From positions 1-37,995 of the IMG/VR virus record IMGVR_UViG_3300045922_000127: 37,995 bases of DNA. The stretch is one strand, 5' to 3'. The notes under the pieces are model-generated. The model saw only the letters and a list, made by a program, of their open reading frames with translations, searched no databases and had not been told where the DNA came from. Shown piece after piece: positions 167 to 37,995 of this stretch. Each line of letters opens with the position of its first letter. Position 1 is the stretch's first letter. Source of the stretch: a virus. A program made the translations under genes and the position numbers.

Positions 167-588
167 CCACCACCAGCAACTTGGAGTGGCCGCCGCCGAG
201 CGAGGTTCCGTCTCCGCTGCCTATCGCGTTGCATTTCCGCTGGTCCGAACTTCAACCGTCAAAGTTTCTCGCAGTCGACGTGACCTCCCTCGACTTCGTG
301 AGATACGCAACCTCTGTGCTCGGCCCGTCGGTTGTGTGCTTGACACAGTTCGTCGCCGCCGACCTTGTTCGCACGCATCGCCGTTCGTATCCCACATGGC
401 TTCTTGCCGAGTCGCTCGGAATGGGCTGCCCTGACGGTGAGCACAGGAAGCTGCGTCTCGTGTTGGTGCGGGCGTGCAAGTTCGGGCCGTTCGAGTTTGC
501 CGGCAACGAGTTCGTGTTGCGATCCCATTGGGTGTCGGACTGGTCTTGGTCTGAGCTGCTGCTCAACGGGGGGACCGATGAACGCTGA
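163..588 (+). CDS. hypothetical protein (141 aa)
   Basis: ATG 163 is preceded by GAAAGGAG at 148-155 and forms an ATGA overlap with the upstream ORF. It lies in the frame of track ORF 130..588. No recognisable motif. Confidence 0.65.
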   Translation: MTTTSNLEWPPPSEVPSPLPIALHFRWSELQPSKFLAVDVTSLDFVRYATSVLGPSVVCLTQFVAADLVRTHRRSYPTWLLAESLGMGCPDGEHRKLRLVLVRACKFGPFEFAGNEFVLRSHWVSDWSWSELLLNGGTDER

Positions 589-1342
589 GGAACTAGCCAA
601 CATTCTTGCCGCCCATGACCGGTGGCTCAGATCGAACGGCAAGGAAGGCGTCAGAGCCAACTTGGTTGGAGCCGACTTGGTTGGAGCCGACTTGGCCGGA
701 GCCATCTTGTACGAAGCCGCCCTGTTTGAAGCCGACTTGGCCGGAGCCATCTTGTTTGAAGCCAGCCTGGCCAGAGCCAACCTGTTCGCTGTCAACCTGG
801 TCGGAGCCAAACTGGTCGGAGCCAAACTGGTCGGAGCCAACCTGGCCGGAGCCAACATGGCCAAAGCCAACCTGGCCGAAGCCAACCTGGCCGGAGCCGA
901 CATGGCCGGAGCCATCCTGACCGGAGCGACCCCGACCGGAGCCATTCTGATCGCTGCCAACATGATCGGAGCCAAACTGGCCGAAGCCAACTTGGCTGGA
1001 GCCGACATGGCCGGAGCCAACCTGGCCGGAGCCGACATGGCCGGAGCCAGCCTGCTCGGAGCCAACCTGGCCGGAGCCAACTTGGTCGGTGCTGTTGGGA
1101 TCAAGTGGGGTGCCATTGGCCCTGTCGGCCAGGGCAGGCGGATGCTCACCGCGTGGGCGCATGACTCGCTGGACGAGCCGATGATCGGCGGCGGCTGCTT
1201 CATGGGCACGTTCGGTGAGTTCCGCGAGATGATCGCCGGTGTGCCGTGGGGATGGGGCAAGGGATCACCCGAGGATCAAGATCGTTGGCGGCAGGAGTGC
1301 GCCGATGCGGCTGATTGGTTGTGGCTGGCGGTGACCAAGTGA
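578..1342 (+). CDS. pentapeptide-repeat protein (254 aa) with a non-repeat C-terminal domain
   Basis: An internal ATG of track ORF 365..1342 gives MNAEELANILAAHDRWLRSNGKEG. This is followed by 29 uninterrupted A(D/N)LxG-type pentapeptides and an 84-aa C-terminal domain. It overlaps the previous gene by 11 nt. Confidence 0.85.
   Translation: MNAEELANILAAHDRWLRSNGKEGVRANLVGADLVGADLAGAILYEAALFEADLAGAILFEASLARANLFAVNLVGAKLVGAKLVGANLAGANMAKANLAEANLAGADMAGAILTGATPTGAILIAANMIGAKLAEANLAGADMAGANLAGADMAGASLLGANLAGANLVGAVGIKWGAIGPVGQGRRMLTAWAHDSLDEPMIGGGCFMGTFGEFREMIAGVPWGWGKGSPEDQDRWRQECADAADWLWLAVTK
656..1090 (+). repeat. 15-bp-period coding tandem repeat (29 pentapeptide units)
   Basis: ANLVG ADLVG ADLAG AILYE ... 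ANLAG ANLVG, counted from the translation. The repeat keeps several other frames open on both strands. Confidence 0.9.
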
Positions 1343-3001: not shown

Positions 3002-3687
3002 TCAGGGTTGTGTCGGTGACGGTGAGGATGCGCCGCTGCGGGCCGTGTCAACGCCGAGCGCCTGACCGTACCGCCACGCCATCTTCGCGTTCACTTTCCG
3101 CCCGGTTCGGGCGGTGATCTCGGCGGCGACCTGCCGCCACGATCCACCGTGGGCGCGGGTGACGGTGAGGATGCGCGCCGCCTCGGCACCGAGCGGCGAG
3201 GTTTCCGGGGTGGCGTCGGGGCCGATGTGCTGCCACCAGGCGAGCCGGCCGCCGGTGTAGCGTCCGTCGCGTCGCGCTCGCTGTTTCCCGGCGACGGTGC
3301 GGGCCCGGATCATCGCCCGCTCGTACTCTGCGATAGCGCCCATGATCTGGCGTACAAGCTTGCGGCTGGCGTCGTGCGGGTCGAGGACCATGGCGTTTTC
3401 GGCGGCGTCAAGGATGGTGACGGTGGCGCCGCGCTGCCACAGCTGGGCAAGAATCCATTCTTGCAGCATGAGGTCTCTGGCGAGGCGGTCTAGTTTGCAC
3501 ACTGCCACGGTGTCGCCGGCGGTGACGGCGGCGAGGAGCGCGGCGAGGGCGGGGCGGGTGTCGATGCCTTCGGCTCCGGAGATGCCGTCGTCGGTGTGAA
3601 GGGTGATCCTCTGGCCGTTGTCTGGGTTTCGATGGTGCCGCGTTCCTGCTGGCCGATGCTTGATACGCGGGCGTAGCCGTGCAACAT
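3002..3687 (-). pseudogene. small serine recombinase (resolvase/invertase type), reading frame broken near 3607-3625
   Basis: ATG 3687 (AAGGAA 7 nt upstream) gives MLHGYARVSSIGQQERGTIETQ, which carries the catalytic Ser motif. That frame runs into Pro/Ser-rich nonsense. The -1 frame reads ITLHTDDGISGAEGIDTRPALAALLAAVTAGDTVAVCKLDRLARD...AIAEYERAMIRARTVAGK plus a C-terminal HTH (track ORF 3002..3508). Confidence 0.75.
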
Positions 3688-3710
3688 GGTCGGGTTTCCT
3701 TGTGGAATGT

Positions 3711-3755
3711 GAACGGCCCGCATCGTTGCCGTGGTGGCGTCGATGCGGGCCGTTC
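3711..3755 (-). terminator. perfect 15-bp stem hairpin between the 80-aa gene and the recombinase
   Basis: GAACGGCCCGCATCG (3711-3725) pairs with CGATGCGGGCCGTTC (3741-3755) around a 15-nt loop. There is no clear U-tract. Confidence 0.5.
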
Positions 3756-3766
3756 GGTGGACGGTC

Positions 3767-4009
3767 TTAGGCGGTGGATCGTGGCGGGTGGTGGTCGTCG
3801 AGAATGAACCGTGCCATCTGGTCGACCATCTCCAGCTCGCTTGCTCGCATGTCAATCTCGGTGCAGCCGATGGCTCGCAACCCGACACGGGTCAGGTCGT
3901 CGGGGGTGTGCGGGTCGTACGGCCATGCTCGCAGGTGGCCGCGGATGGCGGCGGCGATGGCGTCGAGGTCCGCGCCGGTGAGCCTTGACGTGTCCAGGTG
4001 TCGGGTCAT
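3767..4009 (-). CDS. hypothetical protein (80 aa)
   Basis: Track ORF 3767..4018. ATG 4009 makes an ATGA overlap with the upstream stop (alternative ATG 4018). No motif recognised. Confidence 0.6.
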   Translation of the reverse strand: MTRHLDTSRLTGADLDAIAAAIRGHLRAWPYDPHTPDDLTRVGLRAIGCTEIDMRASELEMVDQMARFILDDHHPPRSTA

Positions 4010-4350
4010 TCGGCCCATGCGTAACGCTCCACGAGCATATCGGCGGCGTCATCCGACAGTGGGCGGCGAACCTCGACACCGCCCCAGTATCCGACGATCT
4101 CCGCGTCACGGCCGGTCGCCTGCCATCCGTAGCCCTCGTGGACCACCGGAACCCTCGCTTCGATATGCGGGCCGCCGGTCGTGAACACGACTTCGAGCGT
4201 GTAGGTGATCTCGACGCTCAGCGGGTCGTGCTCGTCGTCGTGCTCGTGCTCGTCGTCGTAGGTGTCGGTGTAGCTGGTGATCTTGTCGAGCATGTCGAGA
4301 ATCGACGTGATGTGCGCCGTCAGCTCGTCCCTGGTCTCGTTGGTGTCCAT
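4006..4350 (-). CDS. small acidic protein, paralogue 1 (114 aa)
   Basis: MDTNETRDELTAH...DDEHEHDDEHDPLSVEITYTLEVVFTTGGPHIEARVPVVHEGYGWQATG is closely similar to the 5209..5520 product. GGGAAAGGA lies 8 nt upstream of ATG 4350. Confidence 0.75.
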   Translation of the reverse strand: MDTNETRDELTAHITSILDMLDKITSYTDTYDDEHEHDDEHDPLSVEITYTLEVVFTTGGPHIEARVPVVHEGYGWQATGRDAEIVGYWGGVEVRRPLSDDAADMLVERYAWAE

Positions 4351-4468
4351 CGTGTGCATCCTTTCCCTTTGGTGAACCGGCCCCGGTTGGGGCCGGTGGT
4401 GCCCCGCCTCGGTCGTGAACCGTCGCCCACCTGGCAGCGGGTGGCGGGGCGGACACTCTAGCCGAGTG

Positions 4469-5164
4469 TCACGGCAGCCTGATTGGCATGACGAGCGCCA
4501 GCAGATCGCAACCGGTGTCGACGCCGTGGGCGGTGAACAAGGTCGGTTTGCGGTTGTCGACGAGGCGGGCGAGCTTCACCCAGTCCGCCCCGATCGCTTT
4601 CGCTGCGGCGCAGATATCCGCCAGATAGGCGGGGTTCCACGCGACCGGCTCGGATTCTTCGAGCGGGAACCCGTCCCGATCCGGTGGGAACAGCTGCTCC
4701 CATTGCGGGTAGTCGCCTTCGAGCAGCCGCACCTGGGCGGTGGACGCCCCATCGGGGGTGATCGTGTCGATTCGCACCGACCGTCCGCCGGTCTCCAGCA
4801 CGAACCGGACCGCCGGTTCGGTGTCACCGCGCCGCACCCTGGGCGTGCCCTTCACGATCCGGACGAGATCGCCGGCGGGGATGTTCACCGGGGCGAACGG
4901 TTCACCGATGGCGACGCGTTCGGTGGTGATGGTGACGACGTGCAGCCGGTAGCTGTCGCACGCGACCAGCCGCACCCCATCGGCGCAGGTGTCGACCAGG
5001 ACACCGGTCAGCAGTGGCCGCGCCTGATCGGTGGACGCCGCCAGCGTGACCGCGTTCACCGCGGCGCGCAGTGTCGACGCGTCGACGGTGAACAGCACCC
5101 GTTCATCGTCGACGACGGCGGGGGTGACCGCCGCCGGTAGATGGTGAATCATGCTCGGATTCAT
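4469..5164 (-). CDS. truncated DnaN (DNA polymerase III beta sliding clamp)-like protein (231 aa)
   Basis: ARPLLTGVLVDTCADGVRLVACDSYRL, LLEGDYPQWEQLFP and C-terminal LALVMPIRLP match conserved DnaN blocks. GGAAGGGAAGGGA lies upstream of ATG 5164. The longer track ORF start (5320) is Arg-rich and overlaps the neighbouring gene. Confidence 0.65.
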   Translation of the reverse strand: MNPSMIHHLPAAVTPAVVDDERVLFTVDASTLRAAVNAVTLAASTDQARPLLTGVLVDTCADGVRLVACDSYRLHVVTITTERVAIGEPFAPVNIPAGDLVRIVKGTPRVRRGDTEPAVRFVLETGGRSVRIDTITPDGASTAQVRLLEGDYPQWEQLFPPDRDGFPLEESEPVAWNPAYLADICAAAKAIGADWVKLARLVDNRKPTLFTAHGVDTGCDLLALVMPIRLP

Positions 5165-5208
5165 GGTATCCCTTCCCTTCCTGTTGGTGTTTCTCGCGGT
5201 CACTCCGC

Positions 5209-5520
5209 TTACGCGTATTCCTCGACGAGCATGGCGGCAACATCCTGGGCCAGCGAGCCCGTCACTTTTTCGCTGCCCCACCAGCCGACGATCTCCGCGC
5301 CGTAGCCGGTTGCCTGCCATCCGTAAGCCTCGTGGACCATCGGGATACGTGCCTCGAGGTGAGGGCCGCCCGTGGCGAACACGACCTCAAGCGTGTAGGT
5401 GATCTCGACGCTCAACGGGACGCACTCGTCGTCGTAGTGGTCGCCGCTGAGTTTCCGCTCGAGCATGTCGCGGATCGACTCAACGTGCGCCGTGAGCTGG
5501 TCCCTGGTCTCGTTGTCCAT
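5209..5520 (-). CDS. small acidic protein, paralogue 2 (103 aa)
   Basis: MDNETRDQLTAH...DDECVPLSVEITYTLEVVFATGGPHLEARIPMVHEAYGWQATG. GGAAGGGAAGGA lies 7 nt upstream of the ATG. Confidence 0.8.
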   Translation of the reverse strand: MDNETRDQLTAHVESIRDMLERKLSGDHYDDECVPLSVEITYTLEVVFATGGPHLEARIPMVHEAYGWQATGYGAEIVGWWGSEKVTGSLAQDVAAMLVEEYA

Positions 5521-6490: not shown

Positions 6491-6537
6491 AGTTTCCCTT
6501 CCCTTCCGTGGCCCACCCGTTGCGGGCCGCTGCCCCG

Positions 6538-6566
6538 ATGGTAACGCTAACGCTGACCCCTGTCAA
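6538..6566 (-). promoter_or_regulatory. leftward promoter candidate (TTGACA-N17-TACCAT)
   Basis: On the minus strand, TTGACA is at 6566-6561 and TACCAT at 6543-6538 with a 17-nt spacer, about 45 nt upstream of ATG 6490. Confidence 0.55.
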
Positions 6567-6637
6567 GCCATACGCGACACCGCCCGCCACCCGAACTAGT
6601 CGAGCAGCGGGCGGTGTGCAGTCAGTCAGTCAATCAT

Positions 6638-6718
6638 CTAGCTCACGCACGTAGCGAGCCGCCAATCAGCCCACTCGCCGAGCAGCTCCAGCACCTCGAT
6701 CTTCTTCGCCATCGTCAT
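6638..6718 (-). CDS. possible 26-aa leader micro-ORF
   Basis: GAGGAAGGA (6730-6722), then ATG 6718, giving MTMAKKIEVLELLGEWADWRLATCVS. It lies between two tandem promoters. Very short. Confidence 0.2.
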   Translation of the reverse strand: MTMAKKIEVLELLGEWADWRLATCVS

Positions 6719-6765
6719 GCATCCTTCCTCATCGAGAGCCTGCACCATACAAGCCACCACACCCG

Positions 6766-6795
6766 ATCATAGCGCCGGCGCTAGCCAAGCGTCAA
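6766..6795 (-). promoter_or_regulatory. leftward promoter candidate (TTGACG-N18-TATGAT) overlapped by a 14-bp palindrome
   Basis: On the minus strand, TTGACG is at 6795-6790 and TATGAT at 6771-6766. The palindrome TAGCGCCGGCGCTA (6770-6783) covers the -10 edge and the spacer. Confidence 0.55.
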
Positions 6796-6858
6796 GCACA
6801 ACCCCGAGCACCACGACGACGACCTCGACGACCTCGCCGAGCCGCGTCGAGGTGAGCC

Positions 6859-6959
6859 GTGCCGGCACACGGCACGACGTACCGCCACAAGGCACACCGC
6901 CGCCTGCCGTGCCACCACACGGCACACTGTGCCGCACCACGGCACACGGCACACGGCAC
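6859..6959. repeat. cluster of ten GGCAC/GTGCC pentamers including three tandem CACGGCA heptamers
   Basis: GGCAC starts at 6864, 6871, 6891, 6921, 6941, 6948 and 6955. GTGCC starts at 6859, 6909 and 6929. Palindromes GTGCCGGCAC (6859-6868) and GGCACACTGTGCC (6921-6933). Heptamer run at 6938-6958. Confidence 0.85.
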
Positions 6960-6970
6960 AGGCTGGAGTG

Positions 6971-7120
6971 CTGCTAACTACTGCTAGCAGACTGCTAACT
7001 CCAGTTAGCAGAGTGCGAACTCCAGCAAGCAGGCTGCTAACTACTGTTAGCACACTGCGAACTACCGCTAGCAGACTGCTAACTACAGCAAGCACCCGTC
7101 CTGCTAACTAAAGTTAGCAC
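6971..7120. repeat. seven tandem 20-bp imperfect palindromes, consensus CTGCTAACT-NN-AGTTAGCAG
   Basis: Units start at 6971, 6992 (perfect arms), 7013, 7034, 7055 and 7076 with an exact 21-bp period, then at 7101. Confidence 0.9.
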
Positions 7121-7418
7121 CCCTCGACGTGTCCAATGTCAAGACACCAGACACGCGCCGGCGCGTACAGGCTTGCCGCGAGTGCCACCACCACCACAAC
7201 ACGCCTGCTCAGCACACCTACGCCACCACCCGGGGCCATGCATCGACCTCGACGGGTCGAGGTAGGGCACTCCCGCCAGCCGCACACGAGCGCACGCAAC
7301 CGGGCAAGTGCCGAGGCACCCGGCGGCGTGTGTGTTGTGTCTCCTTCTCTGCTGTGTTCACTTTTCGTGGTGGGGTGTGTTGTGGGTGGTTTCGTGTTGG
7401 TGGGTTGGTGGTGGGGAT

Positions 7419-7466
7419 GGGGGCGCCGCCCGCTGTTGCGGGCGGAGGCGGCGCCCCCTTCGTTCT
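7419..7466 (+). terminator. strong GC hairpin followed by a T-rich tail
   Basis: GGGGGCGCCGCC (7419-7430) pairs with GGCGGCGCCCCC (7447-7458), with an inner CGC/GCG stem, followed by TTCGTTCT. Confidence 0.45.
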
Positions 7467-7528
7467 GGGGCGTTGGTTGCCTGGTTACGTGCCCCCCCTT
7501 CGGTTGCCGCACCCGAAGTCCCGACCGT

Positions 7529-7550
7529 TGTGGATATCTGTGTGGATATC
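7529..7550. repeat. direct repeat TGTGGATATC x2 (12-bp spacing)
   Basis: Copies at 7529-7538 and 7541-7550. Each contains the GATATC palindrome. Confidence 0.8.
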
Positions 7551-7856
7551 CGAGCACGGTTCACGCTCGTTCCCACCGTGCAGGTGGGGTGTTGTGTGTT
7601 GGTCGTCCCACGGCTTACACGCTGCTGGTGTTGCAGCTCGCGCCCGAGTGTCCTGACGCCTTCGGCGCTTCCGCGTGGGACCGGTCCCCGTTTCCGGCCA
7701 CTTTCCCCTCCGCTGGCTGACCAGGCTGATGTGCGGGTTCGGGGCTTGCTCCCTCACCTCCTGTCGTCCCGACGGTGGTGGGGCTGGGTTGTTGCGAGGG
7801 GATGATGGCATGGGGTGGGGGGCGGTGTCAAGCATCAGCGACGCTGGTTGGGTACG

Positions 7857-11603: not shown

Positions 11604-11978
11604 ATGGCGTACGGGAACCGCACCGACCTGAACAACGCTGTGAAACAAGCCGAGTTCACCGGCCAACCCTACGGGCAAGCAACCGCGCAACGCCGCGCGC
11701 AACGAGCCGTCCCACCAGGCCCACCCCCCACCGAAACCAACACGGCTGGTCCGGTCGCCGGCGGGTTGACCCCACTGGATGCACCCACCCAACGGCCCGC
11801 CGAACCGGTCACCACCGGTCTGCCGTTCGGAGCGGGCGCAGGCCCCGAAGCGTTGGGTGCGACCGGCATCCAACCAGGTTCCCGTGAAGATGTGATCCTG
11901 CGGGTGCGTGCGATGGCAGCCCGCTACCCGAACCCTGCGTTGATCGCGGTGCTGCAAGCGTTGGAGTCGAAACGGTGA
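11604..11978 (+). CDS. hypothetical virion-module protein (124 aa), Pro/Gly-rich centre
   Basis: The ATG lies 2 nt after the portal stop (alternative GTG 11595). The stop overlaps the next gene (GTGA). Confidence 0.6.
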   Translation: MAYGNRTDLNNAVKQAEFTGQPYGQATAQRRAQRAVPPGPPPTETNTAGPVAGGLTPLDAPTQRPAEPVTTGLPFGAGAGPEALGATGIQPGSREDVILRVRAMAARYPNPALIAVLQALESKR

Positions 11979-14900
11979 ACGACTACGACGAGATGCTCGC
12001 CGCGCACGCACGGCAGGTGGCGTTCCGACGCGAAACGGAACGCCGCGCCCGCGAAACCACCCCCCAGCAGGCAGCGACCGTCACCAAAGGCTGGTTAGCG
12101 AACCGGAACCTGAACGTCGAAGCGATGGTGTCGGCTGTGCTGGCCGGTGCCGACGAGCAGATGCTGTGGAACATGAACCAGGCGGCAACCAAACAGATGC
12201 TCCAGGCTGGTGTCGCCCCCGAATCCCCCGCCACGACCAGCCGGCGGCAGCTCGGGTTGAGCACCACAGTCGGAGCGAAAGTTGGTGCAAGCAGCGAACC
12301 CAACCCGTTGCAGCGAGGCGCGATGGCGGTCTCACGCGGCGTGTTCACCGGGCTCATGTCGTTCCCACAGTACCTGGAGAACCTCGCCGGGCAAGCTCTG
12401 CCGCTCCCCGGACAAGACGACTGGAAACCATCCGATCTTGTCAACCTCGTCACCGGCATCCCACAAGCGGCACGCGCCACCGAGCTCGGTCAGGTTGTGG
12501 AAACCGCGTTCCGCACCGGCAGCGTCGATCAGGGCTCAGGATGGTTCCCGCAAGGCCAGGTGCGCGAAGCGCAAGCCGAACGGCAACGCGACCTGTTGGG
12601 CACCGTCACCGGTCGCGACGGTCAACAAGTCGCGTGGACACTCGGACGTGGCATCGCCAGCGACCTCGCCAGCATCAACGTCATCAACCGGGACAGCCTG
12701 TGGTTCGATCTCGTCTCCGGAACCGTCGACGCAGTGATCGAGATGGTCACCGACCCCACCAACTACATCCCAGTCGCCGGGTGGGGTGACGAAGCGATCA
12801 AAGGGATGGCTGCGGTCGGCGGCAGAACCGGACGCCGTGTCGCAGAGCTCCGCCAGGCTGCGGTCGCCGCCGAAGCAGCAGGCGACACCGTGCTCGCCGA
12901 GCGAACGTGGCGGGCTATGGCCCAAGAGCTCGGTGCGCCACGACGCCTCCTCAACAACGCCACCACCCCAACCGATGTGGCGATCCGCGCCGCGCTCCTC
13001 CACGAAGCCGGTGTCGTCGGATCGAACGGGACGCGCACCATCCTGCTGCCAGAGTTCGCCCGGTTCCTCACCACCGGCAACGGTCGTCGCGTCGTGGAAC
13101 GCATGGTGGAAGAAACCAACGTGGCGCGCATCGCCAGGTTGCACAAGAACAAGGTGTCCGGTGCCGTCGCCCGCCAGCTCGCGGAAGCGAAAACACCGGA
13201 AGAAGTGATCGAAGTGTACGCGCGGGCGATGGCGAACCCCGGCGCAGATTTGGCGAACAGCGTCCAACAGATGCCGCACCTCACCCCGATGAGCCTGACC
13301 AGCATGGGGTTGTGGGTGCAAGACAAGCTGGCGTCCCGCACCCGACTGTGGAACCTGCGCCCCACCGACGCCGCCATCAACATCAACGACCCGTACGGGT
13401 ACACCAAGATCGACCAGCTGTATCGCACCATGCCGGTGGAGCCGTCGCTGGCTGTCGGCAGATACAACACCGAGCTGCGCGACCTGCGGATCAAACAGTT
13501 CATCGAAGCGCAAGCCACCGGCGACGAAGGCCAGATCAAGAACGTGGTGAACGCGATCGCAGATGATTTCCGCAGAACGTTCGTGAAGCTCGGGTTCTCC
13601 GAAGATCAAGCCACCCAGGCGACACGGTGGGCGACCGAAGAACAGATCGCCGGGTCGTATCGCACCGCGGACCTGTTGGGTGGCGGGCCGGTTGATGACA
13701 GCATCCTGTTGACGACACAGGTGCTGCAAAACGATGTGCACGTCATCGACCCGCAGATGTTCAACCAGATGTATCGGGAGATGACCCGGTTGCGTCAAGT
13801 GCTGCGCTCCAACCCGGCGTTCTCCACCTGGCAGCGAACACAACGAGCCCTGTACGACGCGGTGATCGAACGCGAAGCCGCCGAAGCCGCGCAAGATTGG
13901 GCTGCTGTCCGCAACCTCGACAAACAGGTGCGCTCCCTCGAAGCGAAACGGACACGTCTCATCGAGAAACAACGCGCCGGCGGCGACGCGTTGGCGGTGT
14001 CGCTTGTTCGCGGTGTCCAGATGATCGCAGACAACGCGATGGGGTTCCTGAAGAACATCATGATCCTCCGCGGCGCCTACCTGCCACGGGTCATCGGGGA
14101 GGAGATCGCCCGCACCGCAGGCGGCAACGTGTACGGCAACGACCCGCTGGAGATGATCGCCACCATGATCCGGTGGGCGTACAACAACGACGCCACCGGG
14201 CAACGGTTCGTGCGCGCCGTCTCCGACTACGACAGCCTGGCGTTGCTGCGCGACGACCGCGCCGCCGAACTGGCGATCCTGCGCCGCTCCGGAGCCTCAC
14301 AGAAACAGATGGATGAGGCGCAACGCGCTCTCGACGAGATCGACAACATGCTCGCCAACCTCGACGACACCGTGCAGTCGTCGATGGCGGAGTTCAACGA
14401 GGCGATGATCGGGCGGGACCGGTTCGACGCGTTGCGAACCGTCACGAAAGGGAACGCCGAATCGCAGATACGCACCGGTTCACGCCAAGTGGCTGATGTG
14501 CGAATCCCCGCCCAGCAACGCAACTGGGTTCGAGGCGTAGCCGACCGAGTGTCGTTCCTGTCCGGTGACCCGGTGATGCGCCGCCTCGCCAGAGGCCGCT
14601 TCGGTGACAAAGCGCTCGTCACCATCGACGGGATCACCGACAGCATCCCCAACCATCTCGCAGCCGGTCGCATCGTCGACCACGCCGACGCGGTGACCCA
14701 CTGGTTGCGGTCTGGTGGCGGCAGACCGTATCTGGATCGGATCGCTCGAGCCCGCGCCGCCGACAACATCCCGTTCGACCCGAACAGCCATGTGGCTGTG
14801 CGCGGCTGGGTGCAAGACATGTTGGACGAGCTGCAAACCGTCACCGGCGGCGACGAAACACTGATCTCCGCTGTCGGCACAGGCCGCTTCGACGGGCGAC

Positions 14901-17098
14901 AGCTCATGGCCAGGGACGCGAAAACCGGCAGATGGGTGCCGAACGACGGGTTGGTGAACCACATCGACGGGTTGAAAACGAACCCGAACATGCCACGGTT
15001 GATGTGGTACAAGACGCAGGAAACAGCCAGCCTGCCGCGACCGAAGATCATGGAAACGGTGGCGTCGGTGTTCTTCGGGAGCCTGTACGGCAAAGGGTCC
15101 GACATGCTGGCCCGCTCCCCCACGTTCCGGCGTGTGTATTGGAAGCACATGGAGACGTTGATCTCGTCCGCCACACCCGAGGAGGCGGCACGGATCGTCA
15201 ACAACGCACGAACCGCCGGCCTGCCAGGCGACGTGCTCCGCAACCTGGAAGCCAAAGCGCGTGGCGCAGCCGGACAAGCCAAGCTGGAAGATTTGGACAA
15301 GCTGGCGAAAGCCGGTGCCCTGTCGTACACCCGTGACCTGCTGTTCGACGCGTCGAAACGCGGCACCGGCATGGACATGCTCCGGTTGATCGTCCCGTTC
15401 GGTGACGCGTGGAAAGAAGTGCTCCTCACATGGGGTCGGCTGCTGGTGCAACAGCGCGGCCTCCCCGCCAAGAAGCTGTTGAAAGGGATACGCGCCGCCA
15501 CCGAAGCGCCGCTCGGACCCGACGTGTACGGCGTCGACGAAGAAGGCAACATCATCCCAGGCAGAGACGGGCGACGCGAAGGGTTCTTCCACCGCAACAG
15601 TGTCGGGGAATGGGTGTACACCGTGCCGTTCAGCGCGGAGATGTCCCGCTTGTTGTCCGGTGGGAAAGTGAACACCGCCCTGGATGCGCCGGTTGCCGGG
15701 TTGAACATCGCCGGGTCGATCTTCCCAGGGTTGGGTCCGGTGTCATCCGAGCTGGTCGCTGGTGCGCTACCTGACGACCCGCGGTGGGACAGTGTGAAAG
15801 CGATCCTGTTCCCGTTCGGCACCCCCGCCGACGCCGACACACCCGGTGGGCAAGCGAACGTGTGGCAACGCTACTTCGTGCCGCCTTCGGTGCGGAAGAT
15901 GGCCGCTGTGTTGGACCCGGAAGGCTGGCAAGGGTATCTGCGGAACCTGCTCAACGACTTCGACACCGACCCCACCTATCAGGCGACCGTCAACTACACG
16001 TACAAGCAGCTGCTGGCCGCCTACATGATGCAAGGTGTTGACGCTGACGCGTTCCAAAACCAGAATCAGATTCGCCGCGAAGCCGCAGCGATCGCGGACA
16101 CCATGTATTTCCTGCGGGGCGTCGGCCAGTTCCTCGGCCCAGCCACCCCCATGTCGAGGTACATGGTGGACACCGCGCAAGGGAACGTCGTCATCGGTCT
16201 GCTCATCGACGAGTGGCGCACCCTGGAGAAAGAGTACGAAGCGGCAGGCGGCGACCCTGACGACGCGATCTTCGACATGTTGGACCGCTACGGGCCGCAG
16301 GTGTGGATGACCGCCGCACCGAACACCGTCACCTTGCTGCAAGGAGCGGACGCGTCGAAAGAATGGTGGGACTGGTATCGGGTGAACAAGGACGCGATCA
16401 ACGCGTATCGGGATGTGGCCGCGTATCTCGGCCCGTCAGGCGAGTTCGACTTGGAGTCGTATTCGGCTCAGTCGTCGGCAGGGTTGCGGCGTGTCGCCAC
16501 CCCACAGGAGATGTACGAGCAGGCTGCGGAGGTGTTGGCGTGGGCGTATCTGGACCGGTTGAAAGAGTCGCTGCCACCGGAAGCGGAATGGGATCAGGAG
16601 ATTCGTGCCATGTTCAGCGACGAGCGGGCAGCGATCGAGCAACGCTTCTCGATCACGCTCGGTGGCACCGAAACCACGAACCGTCGCCGCGATCAGATCA
16701 ACCAGCTGCAAACAATGGTGGAAGCCGCCGAAGCAGGCGACCGCAACGCGCAGGCGCTTCTCGCTGGCGGCACCGGCGACGCTGTCCGAGTGTGGATGGC
16801 TGCCCGTGAAGCAGCGAACGAGGTGGTGCGGCAAGAGCTCGGTTTGACTGGGGTGAACGCGTGGGCGACCGCGGTGCGGGCTGCGCCGATCCGCGACCAG
16901 ATGCGCGAGCTCGGTGAGCAGCTGGCATCCGAAAACGAAGGGTTCGCCAGGTTGTATCGTCAAGTGTTGGAGCGTGAGATGCTGTCCGAAGAAACCGACG
17001 CCGACTATCAACCTTCGGCACGGTCATCTTCGACGCGCCCAGCGGGCACAGTGACGATCACCCCACCACGACGACAGCAGAGGCGGCGGGGGCGGTGA
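11975..17098 (+). CDS. giant virion-module protein (1707 aa), putative internal/ejection protein
   Basis: A single uninterrupted ORF with a GTGA overlap to the upstream gene. It lies between portal and scaffold and is largely predicted helical, with a basic tail RRQQRRRGR. No catalytic motif recognised by eye. Confidence 0.8.
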   Translation: MNDYDEMLAAHARQVAFRRETERRARETTPQQAATVTKGWLANRNLNVEAMVSAVLAGADEQMLWNMNQAATKQMLQAGVAPESPATTSRRQLGLSTTVGAKVGASSEPNPLQRGAMAVSRGVFTGLMSFPQYLENLAGQALPLPGQDDWKPSDLVNLVTGIPQAARATELGQVVETAFRTGSVDQGSGWFPQGQVREAQAERQRDLLGTVTGRDGQQVAWTLGRGIASDLASINVINRDSLWFDLVSGTVDAVIEMVTDPTNYIPVAGWGDEAIKGMAAVGGRTGRRVAELRQAAVAAEAAGDTVLAERTWRAMAQELGAPRRLLNNATTPTDVAIRAALLHEAGVVGSNGTRTILLPEFARFLTTGNGRRVVERMVEETNVARIARLHKNKVSGAVARQLAEAKTPEEVIEVYARAMANPGADLANSVQQMPHLTPMSLTSMGLWVQDKLASRTRLWNLRPTDAAININDPYGYTKIDQLYRTMPVEPSLAVGRYNTELRDLRIKQFIEAQATGDEGQIKNVVNAIADDFRRTFVKLGFSEDQATQATRWATEEQIAGSYRTADLLGGGPVDDSILLTTQVLQNDVHVIDPQMFNQMYREMTRLRQVLRSNPAFSTWQRTQRALYDAVIEREAAEAAQDWAAVRNLDKQVRSLEAKRTRLIEKQRAGGDALAVSLVRGVQMIADNAMGFLKNIMILRGAYLPRVIGEEIARTAGGNVYGNDPLEMIATMIRWAYNNDATGQRFVRAVSDYDSLALLRDDRAAELAILRRSGASQKQMDEAQRALDEIDNMLANLDDTVQSSMAEFNEAMIGRDRFDALRTVTKGNAESQIRTGSRQVADVRIPAQQRNWVRGVADRVSFLSGDPVMRRLARGRFGDKALVTIDGITDSIPNHLAAGRIVDHADAVTHWLRSGGGRPYLDRIARARAADNIPFDPNSHVAVRGWVQDMLDELQTVTGGDETLISAVGTGRFDGRQLMARDAKTGRWVPNDGLVNHIDGLKTNPNMPRLMWYKTQETASLPRPKIMETVASVFFGSLYGKGSDMLARSPTFRRVYWKHMETLISSATPEEAARIVNNARTAGLPGDVLRNLEAKARGAAGQAKLEDLDKLAKAGALSYTRDLLFDASKRGTGMDMLRLIVPFGDAWKEVLLTWGRLLVQQRGLPAKKLLKGIRAATEAPLGPDVYGVDEEGNIIPGRDGRREGFFHRNSVGEWVYTVPFSAEMSRLLSGGKVNTALDAPVAGLNIAGSIFPGLGPVSSELVAGALPDDPRWDSVKAILFPFGTPADADTPGGQANVWQRYFVPPSVRKMAAVLDPEGWQGYLRNLLNDFDTDPTYQATVNYTYKQLLAAYMMQGVDADAFQNQNQIRREAAAIADTMYFLRGVGQFLGPATPMSRYMVDTAQGNVVIGLLIDEWRTLEKEYEAAGGDPDDAIFDMLDRYGPQVWMTAAPNTVTLLQGADASKEWWDWYRVNKDAINAYRDVAAYLGPSGEFDLESYSAQSSAGLRRVATPQEMYEQAAEVLAWAYLDRLKESLPPEAEWDQEIRAMFSDERAAIEQRFSITLGGTETTNRRRDQINQLQTMVEAAEAGDRNAQALLAGGTGDAVRVWMAAREAANEVVRQELGLTGVNAWATAVRAAPIRDQMRELGEQLASENEGFARLYRQVLEREMLSEETDADYQPSARSSSTRPAGTVTITPPRRQQRRRGR

Positions 17099-20659: not shown

Positions 20660-21121
20660 GTGTCCAACGACGACACCACCCCCCCCATCGACGAGCACGA
20701 CGACCTCGATGAGGTGCCCATCCCGAAGCAGATGCGGCAGCACATCAAGGCGTTGGAAGCCGACAACAAGGCGCTCCGCGAACAGGTCGCGGAAGCCGCA
20801 GCGGCCCGCCGCAAGCTGGCGCTCATCGAAGCGGGCGTCGACCTGAACACGCCCACCGGGCAGCTGTTCGCGAAAGCGTACGACGGTGAGCTCACGGTCG
20901 AAGCGATCAAGGCGCAAGCCGAACAGTATGGGGTGGTGGCGCCTCCACCGGCCACAACCGCGTCACCCGCCGAACAGCAGGCGTGGCAGCAGCAGACCAG
21001 AGCACAGTCGGAAGGTTCCGCAACTGGAACAGACTGGTTAGCCAGGTTCGCAGCGGCCAAAACCCCCGACGAGGTTCGGGCGATTCAACGGGAGAAGATG
21101 CAGGCCGAAGGACTCGCATAG
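20660..21121 (+). CDS. scaffolding protein (153 aa)
   Basis: GAAAGGAG upstream of the GTG. Acidic N-terminus, coiled-coil-like KALEADNKALREQVAEAAAARRKLALIE. Located immediately upstream of the capsid gene. Confidence 0.7.
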   Translation: MSNDDTTPPIDEHDDLDEVPIPKQMRQHIKALEADNKALREQVAEAAAARRKLALIEAGVDLNTPTGQLFAKAYDGELTVEAIKAQAEQYGVVAPPPATTASPAEQQAWQQQTRAQSEGSATGTDWLARFAAAKTPDEVRAIQREKMQAEGLA

Positions 21122-22237: not shown

Positions 22238-22531
22238 ATGTTGCACGCCCGCATCCATCCCACCCTGGACGTTCCCGGCTGTTTCGGTTGCCGGGTGGCG
22301 TCCGTGTCGTTCGCGCCGTCTGCGATGCCGTCCCGGCACGCTCAAGCGGTCGAAGCGAACGAGCGGGAAGCCCGCTGGAACCGTGACCTCCCCGCCTACA
22401 AGCGGCTGGTCGAGTCCGGGTTGCAGCCGCGACAGATCGACGGCGCACACCGCCTGGAGGCCACCGCAACAGAACGCCACCAGATCGAAGGTGGTATCGA
22501 CCCGAAGATTGTGGAACGGGTGATGGGATGA
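22238..22531 (+). CDS. hypothetical protein (97 aa) with N-terminal CxxC
   Basis: Track ORF. ATGA overlap with the downstream glycosyltransferase. Confidence 0.65.
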   Translation: MLHARIHPTLDVPGCFGCRVASVSFAPSAMPSRHAQAVEANEREARWNRDLPAYKRLVESGLQPRQIDGAHRLEATATERHQIEGGIDPKIVERVMG

Positions 22532-23712
22532 CCGGCAGGTTGTGTTTGGAGCATGTGCCCCGCCACCACATCGGCTATGGGCGTGCAGGGATGGAGCTGT
22601 ACGCGGCGTGTGAACGCGCCGGGCTGGCCATGTCGTCGTCCGCTGCTGTTGGTGACGCCGAAACGGTCGTGTCCATGATGAACCCGCCGATGGTGAAAGG
22701 CTGGCTGTCGGGGCAGCGGCGTGTGATCTTCACCATGTACGAAACCACCGACTGCCCAGCCCAGTATCGGGTGCTCACCGATTTCGACATGGTGATCGTG
22801 CCGTGCGACGCGAACGTGGAAGCGTTCTCCAAGTGGCATCCGAACGTGGCGAAGGTGCCATTGGGAGCGAACCCCGACCATTGGCGGTTCCAACCCCGAC
22901 CGGCGAGCGGGCCGTTCACGTTCCTGACGCGTGGCGCGGAACCCCGCAAAGGGGTGGACGCCACCTGTGCAGCATTCCAACAAGCCTTCCCCAACAACCG
23001 CGACGTGCGGCTGGTTGTTCACTTCGCGTGGCCTTCCCATGTGGTGGTGCCGTCCGATCCGCGCATCACCGTCATCACCGACAGGTTGTCGCTGGAAACC
23101 GAGATCGCCTTGCACGCGGACGCACACTGCTATGTCGGGTTGTCACGCGGCGAGGGGTGGGGGATGATGCCGTTGCAGGCGATCATGCAAGGCTGCCCGA
23201 CGATCCTCACCGACGCCCACGGCCACGCCGAGTTCGCCCATCTCGCTGTGGGGGTCGCCACGTCGCTGACACCCGCCGCCGACTACATGCGGTTCGGTGA
23301 AGCCGGCGACTGGTGGGAACCCGACGTGGAGGACGCCGCCGTGAAGATGCGAGACGTGTACGACCGCTACGACTCGTACCTGGAGACAGCCACAGTGTGC
23401 TCACGGGTCGCCCGCGACGAACTCAACTGGGATCGCGCCGCGCAACAGCTGATCGACGCGCTCGGTGGCATCGACAGCCTGGGTCCGTACACGGGGTCGG
23501 GTGAGTTCGTGCGACGCTGCGAACCGCTGGTCCCGATCGTCGTGAACCGGAACATCGAATGCGAGATCGCAGACGTGGCGTATCGGTTCGAGTGCGGCGT
23601 CGAGCAGTGGGGGCCGGCGGATGTGCGGCGTGTGCTGCGCGACGCAGGGTACATAGACGATGACTGTTGGAACGATCCACGGTCGCGACTTCCGGAGGTG
23701 GTGCCCCTGTGA
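22528..23712 (+). CDS. GT-B fold (GT1/GT4-like) glycosyltransferase (394 aa)
   Basis: RKGVDATCAAFQQAF ... YVGLSRGEGWGMMPLQAIMQGCPTILTD matches the E-x7-E region of retaining GT4-type enzymes. Confidence 0.7.
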   Translation: MTGRLCLEHVPRHHIGYGRAGMELYAACERAGLAMSSSAAVGDAETVVSMMNPPMVKGWLSGQRRVIFTMYETTDCPAQYRVLTDFDMVIVPCDANVEAFSKWHPNVAKVPLGANPDHWRFQPRPASGPFTFLTRGAEPRKGVDATCAAFQQAFPNNRDVRLVVHFAWPSHVVVPSDPRITVITDRLSLETEIALHADAHCYVGLSRGEGWGMMPLQAIMQGCPTILTDAHGHAEFAHLAVGVATSLTPAADYMRFGEAGDWWEPDVEDAAVKMRDVYDRYDSYLETATVCSRVARDELNWDRAAQQLIDALGGIDSLGPYTGSGEFVRRCEPLVPIVVNRNIECEIADVAYRFECGVEQWGPADVRRVLRDAGYIDDDCWNDPRSRLPEVVPL

Positions 23713-29659: not shown

Positions 29660-31959
<2,300 letters not shown>

Positions 31960-32314: not shown

Positions 32315-32380
32315 GGCCGTCCCGCTCGGCCGTTAGATGGCGGCGCGAGACCACCAGGATCGGGTGGCCTCGCCGCCATC
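32315..32380 (+). terminator. two consecutive hairpins after the 114-aa gene
   Basis: GGCCG...CGGCC at 32315-32331. GATGGCGGCG (32336-32345) pairs with CGCCGCCATC (32371-32380), enclosing CCACC...GGTGG. Confidence 0.4.
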
Positions 32381-32393
32381 GCCCCCACACCCT

Positions 32394-33368
32394 ATGCTGC
32401 CCTCTATGGGGATCACCGCCTGCCTTATCGTCCGCGACGAAATCCGCGTCATAGAACGCTGCGTCACCTCACTCGAAGGTGTCGTCGACAACATGATCGT
32501 TCACGACACCGGCTCCACCGACGGAACATGGTCATGGCTGGTTAACCAGGACTACCTGCCGTTCATCCTGCACAGCCAGCAGTGGGTCAACTTCGAGCAC
32601 AACCGCAACCTGCTCATGGAAACAGCCGCCGACGCGAACGACTGGCTGCTGCTGTTGGACGCCGACCACCAGATCGCCTGCGACCCGGACGAGTTGCGCC
32701 GCCTGCTCGCTGACACCCCCGACAACATCGACGTGTACCTGGTGCCGCACGAAACAGGGTGGCGGCACTACAACGCCCGCCTGGTGCGCGGCGACCGGGT
32801 GTGGCGCTATCAGGGTGTCACACACGAAACGCTCGTGTACGACCACGCTCGAGCGGCTCGAACCGATGTGCTGCGGATCATCGACCACGCCGACGGTGGC
32901 AGCCGCACAGACAAGCTCGAACGCGACCGCAAGCTCCTGACCGAGCATCTCGGGCAGCACCCCGACGACACGCGTGCGGTGTTCTACCTTGCTCGCACCT
33001 TCGAGGACATGGGCGACTGGGAAGCGGCGCTCATCTACTACCACCGGCGCGCGCAGATGGGCGGCTGGGAAGAGGAACGCTGGTGGGCGCAGTATCGGGC
33101 CGGGTGGATGGCGGCGTTTCTGCCTGGCGGGGTGAACACGGCGATGGAGGAGCTGATGGCCGCTCATCTTGCCCGCCCCGGTCGGGCGGAGCCGCTGGCC
33201 CGCATCATCGACTTGTGCCACATGAACGGCTGGGATCATCTCGCAGCGTTCTACACCGGCCATCTGCCGCAGCAGCCACCAGCCGAGGACATTCTGTTCG
33301 TGGAGTCCGCCGACTACCCAGCGTGTCGAGGCGTGAGCGAAAACCTCTTGACGCAACATACTGCGTAG
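32394..33368 (+). CDS. GT-A fold (family 2-like) glycosyltransferase with a C-terminal TPR-like region
   Basis: GITACLIVRDEIRVIERCVTSL...NMIVHDTGSTDGT and LLLDADH (DxD-type motif). The C-terminus has AVFYLARTFEDMGDWEAALIYYHRRAQ. Start uncertain (32394, 32406 or 32337). Confidence 0.75.
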   Translation: MLPSMGITACLIVRDEIRVIERCVTSLEGVVDNMIVHDTGSTDGTWSWLVNQDYLPFILHSQQWVNFEHNRNLLMETAADANDWLLLLDADHQIACDPDELRRLLADTPDNIDVYLVPHETGWRHYNARLVRGDRVWRYQGVTHETLVYDHARAARTDVLRIIDHADGGSRTDKLERDRKLLTEHLGQHPDDTRAVFYLARTFEDMGDWEAALIYYHRRAQMGGWEEERWWAQYRAGWMAAFLPGGVNTAMEELMAAHLARPGRAEPLARIIDLCHMNGWDHLAAFYTGHLPQQPPAEDILFVESADYPACRGVSENLLTQHTA

Positions 33369-37409: not shown

Positions 37410-37822
37410 GCGACGGGACCAACATAGCCGACCAGGTGCTGGCGGACGCTGCGGCCGACATCGGTTACCGCATCGCGTCATCCCTCGAAGACATCATGCG
37501 CCGCCGAGTCTGCGACGGCGAGTTCGTCACCTACAGCGACACACCTGACAGCCAGTTGACCGAGTTGGCCAATCTTGCGTCACGGTTGGTCATCATCGGC
37601 GCAGACACGGGCGCGGCTGTCCGTGACGCCCGCCGCTGCCACCGGCTGATCGGCGTGTACCGGGAGGCATCCGACATCGAGTTGGGGCGCATCTACCACA
37701 CCACCTACACCGACAGCAGAGAGTGGCAGTTCCTGTTGGATGAGATCGACCGGCGTGGTCTCACCGACGAGTTCCTCGACGCCTGCTACCTCGACGGCAC
37801 CGATGAGGTGGCAGGGCGATGA
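37406..37822 (+). CDS. hypothetical protein (138 aa)
   Basis: Track ORF with ATGA overlaps at both ends. Confidence 0.7.
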   Translation: MSDGTNIADQVLADAAADIGYRIASSLEDIMRRRVCDGEFVTYSDTPDSQLTELANLASRLVIIGADTGAAVRDARRCHRLIGVYREASDIELGRIYHTTYTDSREWQFLLDEIDRRGLTDEFLDACYLDGTDEVAGR

Positions 37823-37995
37823 GCGACGAGCCCGAGTGGGTGTTCATCCTCAGCCGCAGGCGAAACCGCCCCACCTACCACAGCATCCGATGGGTCGGGG
37901 ATCGAACCATCGGCACGCTATGCGGTGCGTGGATCGAGCGCCGGATCATGGGCTGGTCGCATCTTCGCCGTGACCACGCTGACCTGTTCGCCCGA
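37819..37995 (+). CDS. 5' portion of the junction-spanning small ORF (continues at 128-166 after circularisation)
   Basis: ATG 37819 overlaps the upstream stop (ATGA). The frame is open to the window end and continues into the repeat. Confidence 0.55.
   Translation, partial: MSDEPEWVFILSRRRNRPTYHSIRWVGDRTIGTLCGAWIERRIMGWSHLRRDHADLFAR
37869..37995. repeat. Terminal direct repeat, copy 2 (identical to 1-127)
   Basis: See copy 1. Confidence 0.95.

Follow-up and report, generated by a model that had tools for sequence, protein, structure and literature searches.

What does a phage that encodes no DNA polymerase do with part of a sliding clamp? We address this question for a gene at positions 4469–5164 (minus strand) of the IMG/VR virus record IMGVR_UViG_3300045922_000127, all 37,995 nucleotides (nt) of which were analysed and are referred to here as the window. 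Bacteria organise their polymerases, clamp loader and repair enzymes around sliding clamps, whose docking pocket serves as a target for antibiotics. An initial annotation, made from the sequence alone, had described the product (231 amino acids (aa)) as a half-size homologue of the bacterial beta clamp DnaN and had suggested that it might form a higher-order ring, join the host clamp or act as a decoy. We favour, with a probability of roughly 55%, a module outside any ring that would capture host clamp-binding proteins, either as a decoy or as an adaptor.

Homology to DnaN, as first proposed, is supported by profiles, by solved structures and by fold. The protein passes the cutoff of a single Pfam family, PF02767 (43.2 bits versus a cutoff of 27, E = 5.7 × 10−11); PF00712 aligns to the residues matched by PF02767 and, at 12.2 bits, stays below its cutoff of 24.4, and PF02768 is not reported. 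It also matches PHROG 947, 'DNA polymerase processivity factor' (E = 1.2 × 10−21), and TIGR00663 (E = 2 × 10−16, 59.9 bits, under the equivalog cutoff of 137.65), and a phmmer search of the Protein Data Bank (PDB) returned solved beta clamps down to E = 7.5 × 10−10. An AlphaFold2 model built on eight relatives has a predicted local distance difference test score (pLDDT) of 83.6 and a predicted template-modelling score (pTM) of 0.82. When this model was compared with the PDB using Foldseek, a check that the initial annotation had called for, the best matches were all beta clamps, led by mycobacterial ones (E ~1 × 10−9, template-modelling score (TM) ~0.68, normalised to the query). No family among the PADLOC defence-system models was matched at E values up to 0.01.

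The gene is real and intact, and is no assembly artefact. Read directly from the sequence, the open reading frame (ORF) runs on the minus strand from an ATG at 5164–5162 to a TGA at 4471–4469 and encodes 231 aa plus the stop, with the DnaN-like blocks that had been quoted for it all present: RPLLTGVLV...DGVRLVACDSYRL at aa 49–74, LLEGDYPQWEQLFP at aa 147–160 and VMPIRL at aa 225–230. A purine-rich, Shine–Dalgarno-like sequence, GGAAGGGAAGGG (5170–5181, minus strand), lies 5 nt upstream of the ATG, supporting the start at 5164 over an upstream ATG at 5320 or the start at 5152 in the JGI gene call. The frame is open upstream to 5320; the added stretch resembles no clamp and runs into the preceding gene, which stops at 5209. 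In the call by JGI, from which the contig originates, the gene begins four codons later (227 aa) and its product is named 'DNA polymerase III sliding clamp (beta) subunit'. At third codon positions GC reaches 80%, a value shared with the other genes of this sequence (65% GC overall) and usual for its coding regions. Comparison with the orthologue on a related viral contig, L006 (75% identical), gives a ratio of nonsynonymous to synonymous substitution rates (dN/dS) of 0.40 (Fisher P = 2 × 10−5), showing that the gene is under purifying selection.

We also considered whether a longer, intact three-domain ORF would emerge once sequencing errors were corrected, which the initial annotation had named as grounds for abandoning its view. 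No other clamp-like coding sequence was present in the six frames of the window, bar one 10-bit, chance-level match, and the truncated layout is common to dozens of independent relatives. The match is to domain I and falls in a probable scaffold gene (20660–21121; E = 0.0085 among 729 segments); as a candidate for a gene encoding the missing half, it was judged to be due to chance.

Each domain of a clamp is made of two beta-alpha-beta-beta-beta modules. The model of the window protein contains three such modules (residues 22–80, 93–146 and 174–229) and three ring-type helices, so that the protein amounts to 1.5 domains, within the first estimate of one and a half to two. From the N terminus, aa 1–21 (5102–5164; this and the following segments are on the minus strand) are disordered, with pLDDT below 50 at residues 1–18. 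Within them, aa 6–21 (IHHLPAAVTPAVVDDE) align to the connector between domains I and II (E. coli residues 108–123) and are a vestige of an ancestor with three domains. The counterpart of DnaN domain II, a complete clamp domain, follows at aa 22–146 (4727–5101), as placed by the model and by residue mapping; its two modules consist of strand 22–28, helix 29–42 and strands within 54–80, and of strand 93–96, helix 97–106 and strands within 118–146. The interdomain connector and a loop occupy aa 147–173 (4646–4726) and include a conserved GDYPxWxxLFP motif. The last segment, aa 174–231 (4472–4645), is a single module (helix 178–190, strands 197–200, 208–214 and 219–225) that corresponds to the second half of domain III according to profile alignment, phmmer and the model.

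The boundaries of what has been lost were drawn with a hidden Markov model (HMM) of 60 full-length relatives plus E. coli DnaN, to which the window protein was aligned locally. Residues 6–162 correspond to HMM positions 106–250 and E. coli residues 108–251 (the I–II connector, domain II and the II–III connector), and residues 173–230 correspond to HMM positions 314–364 and E. coli residues 316–366 (the second module of domain III). HMM positions 251–313, 63 match states in all, are unmatched, and domain I is absent. Alignment by phmmer likewise placed aa 171–229 on residues 336–388 of PDB entry 2awa. A global hmmalign alignment had instead matched the protein's final helix to the first one of domain III, a consequence of the internal repeats of the fold; this placement was ruled out by the local alignment, by the NPxYL and MPxR motifs and by the 2awa alignment. 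A 10-residue acidic loop (aa 163–172) stands in for the 64 residues (E. coli 252–315) of the first domain III module. This loop is not constant: L006 and one other relative (P0002) have 11 aa inserted in it, and the model has low confidence around residues 164–167. From the proline of the connector to the asparagine of the last helix, the window protein has 24 residues, compared with a median of 77 in full-length clamps (n = 177) and 23 in short ones (20–24 in 37 of 50), reflecting a uniform deletion of ~54 residues throughout the short family. The TM of ~0.68 to whole beta clamps indicates that the complete domain and the half domain are oriented towards one another as in a native clamp.

The hydrophobic pocket of a clamp is the docking site for the clamp-binding motifs of polymerases, the delta subunit of the clamp loader and repair enzymes. 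In E. coli, subsite I of this pocket comprises R152, L155, T172, G174, H175, R176, L177, P242, R246, V247, V360 and M362, and subsite II comprises H175, N320, Y323, V344, M362, P363, M364 and R365, and the dimer is stabilised by I78, F106, I272, L273, R103, E298 and E304 (PMC11139829). At the sequence level, all 18 pocket positions fall within the retained segments and carry conservative residues in the window protein: R49, L52, C69, S71, Y72, R73, L74, P153, Q157, L158, N177, Y180, R205, L224, M226, P227, I228 and R229. Seven of these lie in domain II (R49, L52, C69, S71, Y72, R73 and L74, for E. coli R152, L155, T172, G174, H175, R176 and L177), the connector supplies P153 and L158 (P242 and V247), and N177, Y180, L224, M226, P227, I228 and R229 of the last module correspond to N320, Y323, V360, M362, P363, M364 and R365. 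Across 75 short relatives, the consensus at the 18 positions is R, L, T/C, S, Y, R, L, P, a variable residue (S/Q/K/T, often unaligned), L, N, Y/F, L/M, L/V, M, P, V/I and R. The commonest residue has a mean frequency of 0.74 at pocket positions versus 0.35 elsewhere in these relatives (Mann–Whitney P = 3 × 10−8), and pocket positions account for 13 of the 25 most conserved.

The residues that stabilise the dimer show the opposite pattern, with all seven lying in deleted segments: I78, R103 and F106 were lost with domain I, and I272, L273, E298 and E304 with the first module of domain III. The earlier statement that the protein cannot form the canonical dimeric ring is therefore upheld, as every interface residue named in PMC11139829 has been deleted. 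To judge from these alignments, the deletions remove exactly the ring-closing parts and spare the whole docking pocket. The window protein has an isoelectric point (pI) of 5.1 and an acidic N terminus, and lacks a basic tail.

This architecture is not peculiar to the window, and the unusualness that the initial annotation implied was not borne out: short phage clamps form a large class that had already been noticed, with five short phage homologues of the polymerase III beta subunit noted by Kazlauskas and Venclovas in 2011 (PMC3201878). In a profile search of 1.84 billion representative proteins, we found 16,085 clamps, and among the best 150 of these, 72 were 188–279 aa long. Every short member that was looked up was metagenomic, and those with genomic context lay in phage early regions, on contigs carrying phage genes. 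Their neighbours included DNA methylases, AAA_24 and VRR-NUC genes, and HNH, portal and capsid genes, and some relatives resemble the window in their divergent gene order and have its terminase and portal genes. The combination of domain II with only the final module of domain III was found in the window protein, in gp51 of Rhodococcus phage REQ2 and in 14 further loci, and both architecture and motifs hold up in divergent relatives (25–35% identity) that span many phage lineages and include isolated phages.

Among isolated phages, the same short fold was recovered from BFVD for Rhodococcus REQ2 (266 aa), Gordonia Horus (238 aa), Burkholderia BcepNazgul and Burkholderia AH2, Serratia Rovert and Pantoea PSKM, the evidence being a fold of similarly short length (TM of at most 0.77 when normalised to the targets, which have 178–266 aa). 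BLAST searches of 50,697 isolated-phage records with the window DNA, the window protein and four other short members found nothing similar to the short form, and the nearest relatives are metagenomic. Matches to full-length clamps (Arthrobacter phages, a Mycobacterium prophage and Microcystis phages), to unannotated, fragmentary fecal 'Bacteriophage sp.' records and to contaminant-like records were set aside, as was an apparent Enterococcus phage match that proved to be a full-length, 376-aa DnaN in an unverified record. A scan of 185,579 species genomes for the motif [VTI]A[TC]DSYRLH found only two full-length DnaN proteins, both from Acidimicrobiia; this strict pattern says little about prophages. 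We found no paper characterising a short phage clamp in a literature search.

Part of the class has been filed under another name. The window protein matches PHROG 3007 (E = 1.4 × 10−13, aa 25–230 on profile positions 3–186 of 190) and PHROG 12598 (E = 1.5 × 10−12, aa 25–231 on positions 6–210 of 275) end to end; of 69 relatives, 55 match the former family and 37 the latter. Both PHROGs are labelled 'RusA-like Holliday junction resolvase', and the same label is carried in RefSeq by REQ2 gp51 (NC_016652, 36591–37391). This protein has the layout of the window protein plus a basic, K/A/P-rich C-terminal tail of ~70 aa and is a full-length member of PHROG 12598 (E = 3 × 10−97), which explains why the window protein matches the two PHROGs under a wrong name. 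The RusA-like label of gp51 and of both PHROGs is a propagating annotation error, and the proteins are short DnaN-like ones. The window gene is thus a member of a large, previously noted and partly mislabelled class. Basic, K/A/P-rich tails also occur at the N terminus in 16 of the 75 relatives, which suggests, by analogy with UL42, that part of the family may be tethered to DNA without encircling it.

The relatives include other truncated clamps. One (P0156, 322 aa) keeps domain II and a complete domain III, and five others (P0004–P0006, P0031 and P0081, ~295–306 aa) carry an unrelated insertion of ~95 aa at the position of the first domain III module.

The genome that encodes the window protein is complete. 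Positions 1–127 are an exact copy of 37869–37995, and L006 reads across the junction, so that the window represents a complete circular assembly of 37,868 base pairs (bp); a 71-aa ORF starting at 37819 spans the junction. No ORF of this complete genome matches a polymerase, primase, helicase or clamp-loader family, confirming the first observation that no polymerase is encoded. Genes for recombination are present (a YqaJ exonuclease, RecT and RusA, the last at 1659–2090), together with those for terminase, portal, major head, tail fibres and an endolysin-like VanY protein. The window also encodes WhiB, which suggests an actinobacterial host.

A clamp that lacks both ring-closing surfaces and retains a conserved pocket in its native geometry, in a phage that depends on its host, leads us to infer that the protein is not a ring and that its pocket binds host clamp-binding motifs. 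The window protein is a stable, selected clamp derivative reduced to three of six modules (domain II plus the second half of domain III); rather than a canonical DNA-encircling dimer, it would be a free-standing pocket module for the clamp-binding motifs of host replication or repair proteins. Possible actinobacterial clients are DnaE1, the clamp-loader delta subunit, DinB or ImuB, and NucS; they would be diverted during infection, with the phage relying on host synthesis and on its own exonuclease, RecT and RusA. Among the options raised at first, retention of the pocket favours the decoy or redirector, and we consider an inhibitory decoy and a productive adaptor or tether to be about equally likely for this protein.

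Work on full-size clamps is consistent with such competition. Delta binds monomeric beta ~50-fold more tightly than the dimer (PMC11139829), and two full-length actinophage clamps are toxic on overexpression in Mycobacterium smegmatis: Waterfoul gp48 (PMC9339283) and Adephagia gp35, for which the authors suggest interference with host replication (PMC11373665). Together, the affinity of delta for the monomer and the toxicity of these clamps fit the idea that a pocket module could compete effectively.

Several points weigh against this capture of host proteins. The pocket is also the best conserved part of full-length clamps and anchors the alignment, and its conservation in the short family is thus partly expected. 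A solvent-exposed half domain is unusual and suggests an unrecognised partner or self-association. If a decoy sequestered the polymerase or the clamp loader of the host, the phage, which depends on both, would suffer too. The phage's own proteins contain no convincing clamp-binding motif but only loose matches, such as QFQVDY near the C terminus of RecT.

The exposed half domain is the starting point for the alternative that survives best, though we still regard it as unlikely, namely a non-canonical clamp serving as a processivity factor for the host polymerase. Here, two copies would join through their orphan half domains, which a two-fold axis would relate and make into one complete domain; the result would be a three-domain, C-shaped dimer, and two such dimers could form a D2 tetramer of 12 modules, encircling or cradling phage DNA. 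The arithmetic is suitable, in that each monomer would contribute 3 modules to a ring of 12, and an exposed half domain needs a partner; moreover, the modules of clamps are known to be related by a pseudo-two-fold axis, making a symmetric half-domain dimer geometrically plausible. The pocket for a polymerase is intact, and the herpesvirus proteins UL44 and BMRF1 are precedents for C-shaped dimers (PMC3201878).

Against such an assembly, no natural tandem fusion of two short units was seen among the relatives. Several positions conserved as polar or basic in full-length relatives are small or hydrophobic in the short family (for example, Q to A at HMM position 139 and R to V/A at 178, and R to G at position 197 in the window protein), which may also count against it. 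In a D2 ring, half of the pockets would be on the wrong side, and the clamp loader of the host would be faced with opening an interface unlike the one it normally opens. The specific proposal of a half-domain-swapped, C-shaped dimer or D2 tetramer (4 × 3 = 12 modules) around DNA, a new way of building a clamp, strikes us as decidedly doubtful. If correct, such a ring would be unlike the head-to-tail C2 (beta), C3 (PCNA and gp45) and hetero-trimeric (9-1-1) rings and would represent, in living form, the ancestral half domain from which all clamps have been postulated to descend; a ring self-assembling from half domains would thus bear on the evolution of the clamp fold.

Use of the clamp fold outside replication, as a transcription co-factor or as a scaffold on which a phage enzyme, perhaps a DNA methylase, would work, is in our view improbable. 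Clamps are reported to act in late transcription, T4 gp45 being one case and the host clamp in phage Mu another (PMC7892883 and PMC12867686), but it is a ring clamp that T4 and Mu use. DNA methyltransferase genes recur near short clamps in four locus groups, and the window gene lies in an early leftward operon with small DNA-binding proteins; however, the methylase is absent from the window itself, and no partner gene is conserved across the family.

A heteromer with the host beta clamp, poisoning or re-targeting the host ring as the initial annotation suggested, would draw on the shared fold and on the relatives that the protein has in host-type DnaN. Both surfaces for head-to-tail entry (domain I and the first module of domain III) have been deleted, however, and with both interfaces lost, insertion into a host DnaN ring is unlikely, leaving this a very improbable account. 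A decaying, functionless remnant of a host-derived clamp gene is just as hard to credit, since the ORF is intact, has a Shine–Dalgarno sequence and evolves with a dN/dS of 0.40, and since a precise architecture and its motifs persist at 25–35% identity across numerous phage lineages, isolated phages included, even though the neighbouring serine recombinase is truly broken by a 28-nt deletion and Kazlauskas and Venclovas considered phage clamp homologues in genomes without a polymerase to be probably acquired by horizontal transfer and presumably not needed for replication (PMC3201878).

The free pocket module that we favour can be set against the clamp systems described so far. It shares with DnaN (PF00712, PF02767 and PF02768; TIGR00663) domain II, the interdomain connector, the last domain III module and the C-terminal MPxR strand, as well as all positions of the pocket for clamp-binding motifs, with conservative residues. 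It differs in length (231 aa versus ~360–410) and in having 1.5 rather than three domains, in lacking domain I, the equivalents of E. coli residues 252–315 and the known dimer-interface residues, and in being encoded by a phage with neither polymerase nor clamp loader. The herpesvirus factors UL42 (a monomer) and UL44 and BMRF1 (C-shaped dimers) are viral clamp folds that form no closed ring, need no clamp loader and dock a polymerase. The likeness to UL42 and UL44 is at the level of the fold, with canonical interfaces lost; the herpesvirus proteins consist of two whole domains, bind DNA through a strongly basic face and serve a polymerase of their own virus, in contrast to the 1.5 domains, the pI of 5.1 and the polymerase-less phage seen here.

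T4 gp45 and PCNA resemble the window protein in length (~230–260 aa) and in the clamp fold, but have two full domains with four ring-lining helices and form trimeric rings; the window protein has three helices, and three copies of it would supply 9 of the 12 ring modules. Twort Gp168 is reported to be a beta-clamp inhibitor that sits in the DNA sliding channel of the host clamp (PMC8565349). Gp168 and the window protein may share a purpose, namely interference with or capture of the host clamp–polymerase network, with the difference that the window protein would mimic the docking pocket and compete for clients of the clamp. Compared with the REQ2 gp51 type, the window protein lacks the basic tail and has no BLAST-level similarity to isolated phages.

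The contribution of this analysis is to define the layout precisely (domain II and one half of domain III) and to show that the deletions spare the whole pocket and remove the whole ring interface. Many uncultured and a few isolated phages appear to have reduced the clamp to its pocket and discarded the ring; among the complete genomes examined, that of the window encodes no polymerase and that of REQ2, a temperate actinophage, none that is annotated. A module that bound clamp-binding motifs would act on the host replisome as a natural competitor or adaptor encoded in a phage genome; it would define a new class of phage takeover factor and would also offer a minimal scaffold for the study of pocket ligands or for screening. 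In addition, the label 'RusA-like Holliday junction resolvase' in the PHROGs and in at least one RefSeq record should be corrected.

Two paralogous genes flank the clamp-like gene: paralogue A downstream (117 aa, 4006–4359, minus strand) and paralogue B upstream (103 aa, 5209–5520, minus strand). They are 64% identical, and both have a small beta-sheet domain in addition to a long N-terminal helix and an acidic linker rich in D, E and H; L006 has the downstream copy only. Their five homologues among 5.8 billion proteins are all in close relatives; being lineage-specific and not co-occurring with short clamps elsewhere, the paralogues were rejected as partners. An AlphaFold2 model of paralogue A (pLDDT 69) had no significant fold match in the PDB. 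Just 3′ of the stop codon of the clamp-like gene, between it and paralogue A, a hairpin-forming inverted repeat, GACACTC ggctag GAGTGTC, is followed by a second, GC-rich one (4440–4468, minus strand, noted by eye), and the pair may be a terminator or regulatory element.

Across ten locus groups, we found no conserved partner gene, save for a DNA methylase that recurs in four. In L006, a 340-aa ORF between WhiB and RusA (4477–5499 of that contig, minus strand) has motifs of the C5 cytosine methyltransferase type, recognised by eye; it is absent from the window, and its homologues adjoin short clamp genes in three other locus groups. Methylases annotated by Pfam (PF01555 and PF00145) lie near a short clamp gene in further loci.

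The serine recombinase mentioned above, of the small resolvase type, occupies 3002–3888 (minus strand). Relative to the intact 249-aa gene of L006 (2788–3537), its 28-nt deletion leaves the N-terminal catalytic part and the C-terminal part in different frames. No other integrase and no tRNA gene were found in the window.

Elsewhere, the ORF-poor gap at 6491–7814 contains about seven tandem palindromic units, CTGCTAACTnCAGTTAGCAGa, in a 21-bp register (6971–7119). This array, whose GC content is below that of the genome, separates the leftward early operon from the large terminase gene and looks like a protein-binding array of the iteron, operator or pac type. A 1707-aa ORF between the portal and capsid-region genes (11975–17098, plus strand) matches no Pfam or PHROG family, and its product is presumably a virion or ejection protein. 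The early rightward region includes a pentapeptide-repeat protein (365–1342, plus strand; PF00805, E = 2 × 10−34); some proteins of this kind are DNA mimics, such as gyrase protectors. Finally, the window carries two glycosyltransferase-like genes (22528–23712 and 32337–33368, plus strand) and a tail-fibre-like protein (29989–31959, plus strand) that combines collagen repeats with a lectin domain of the laminin-G/ConA-like type.

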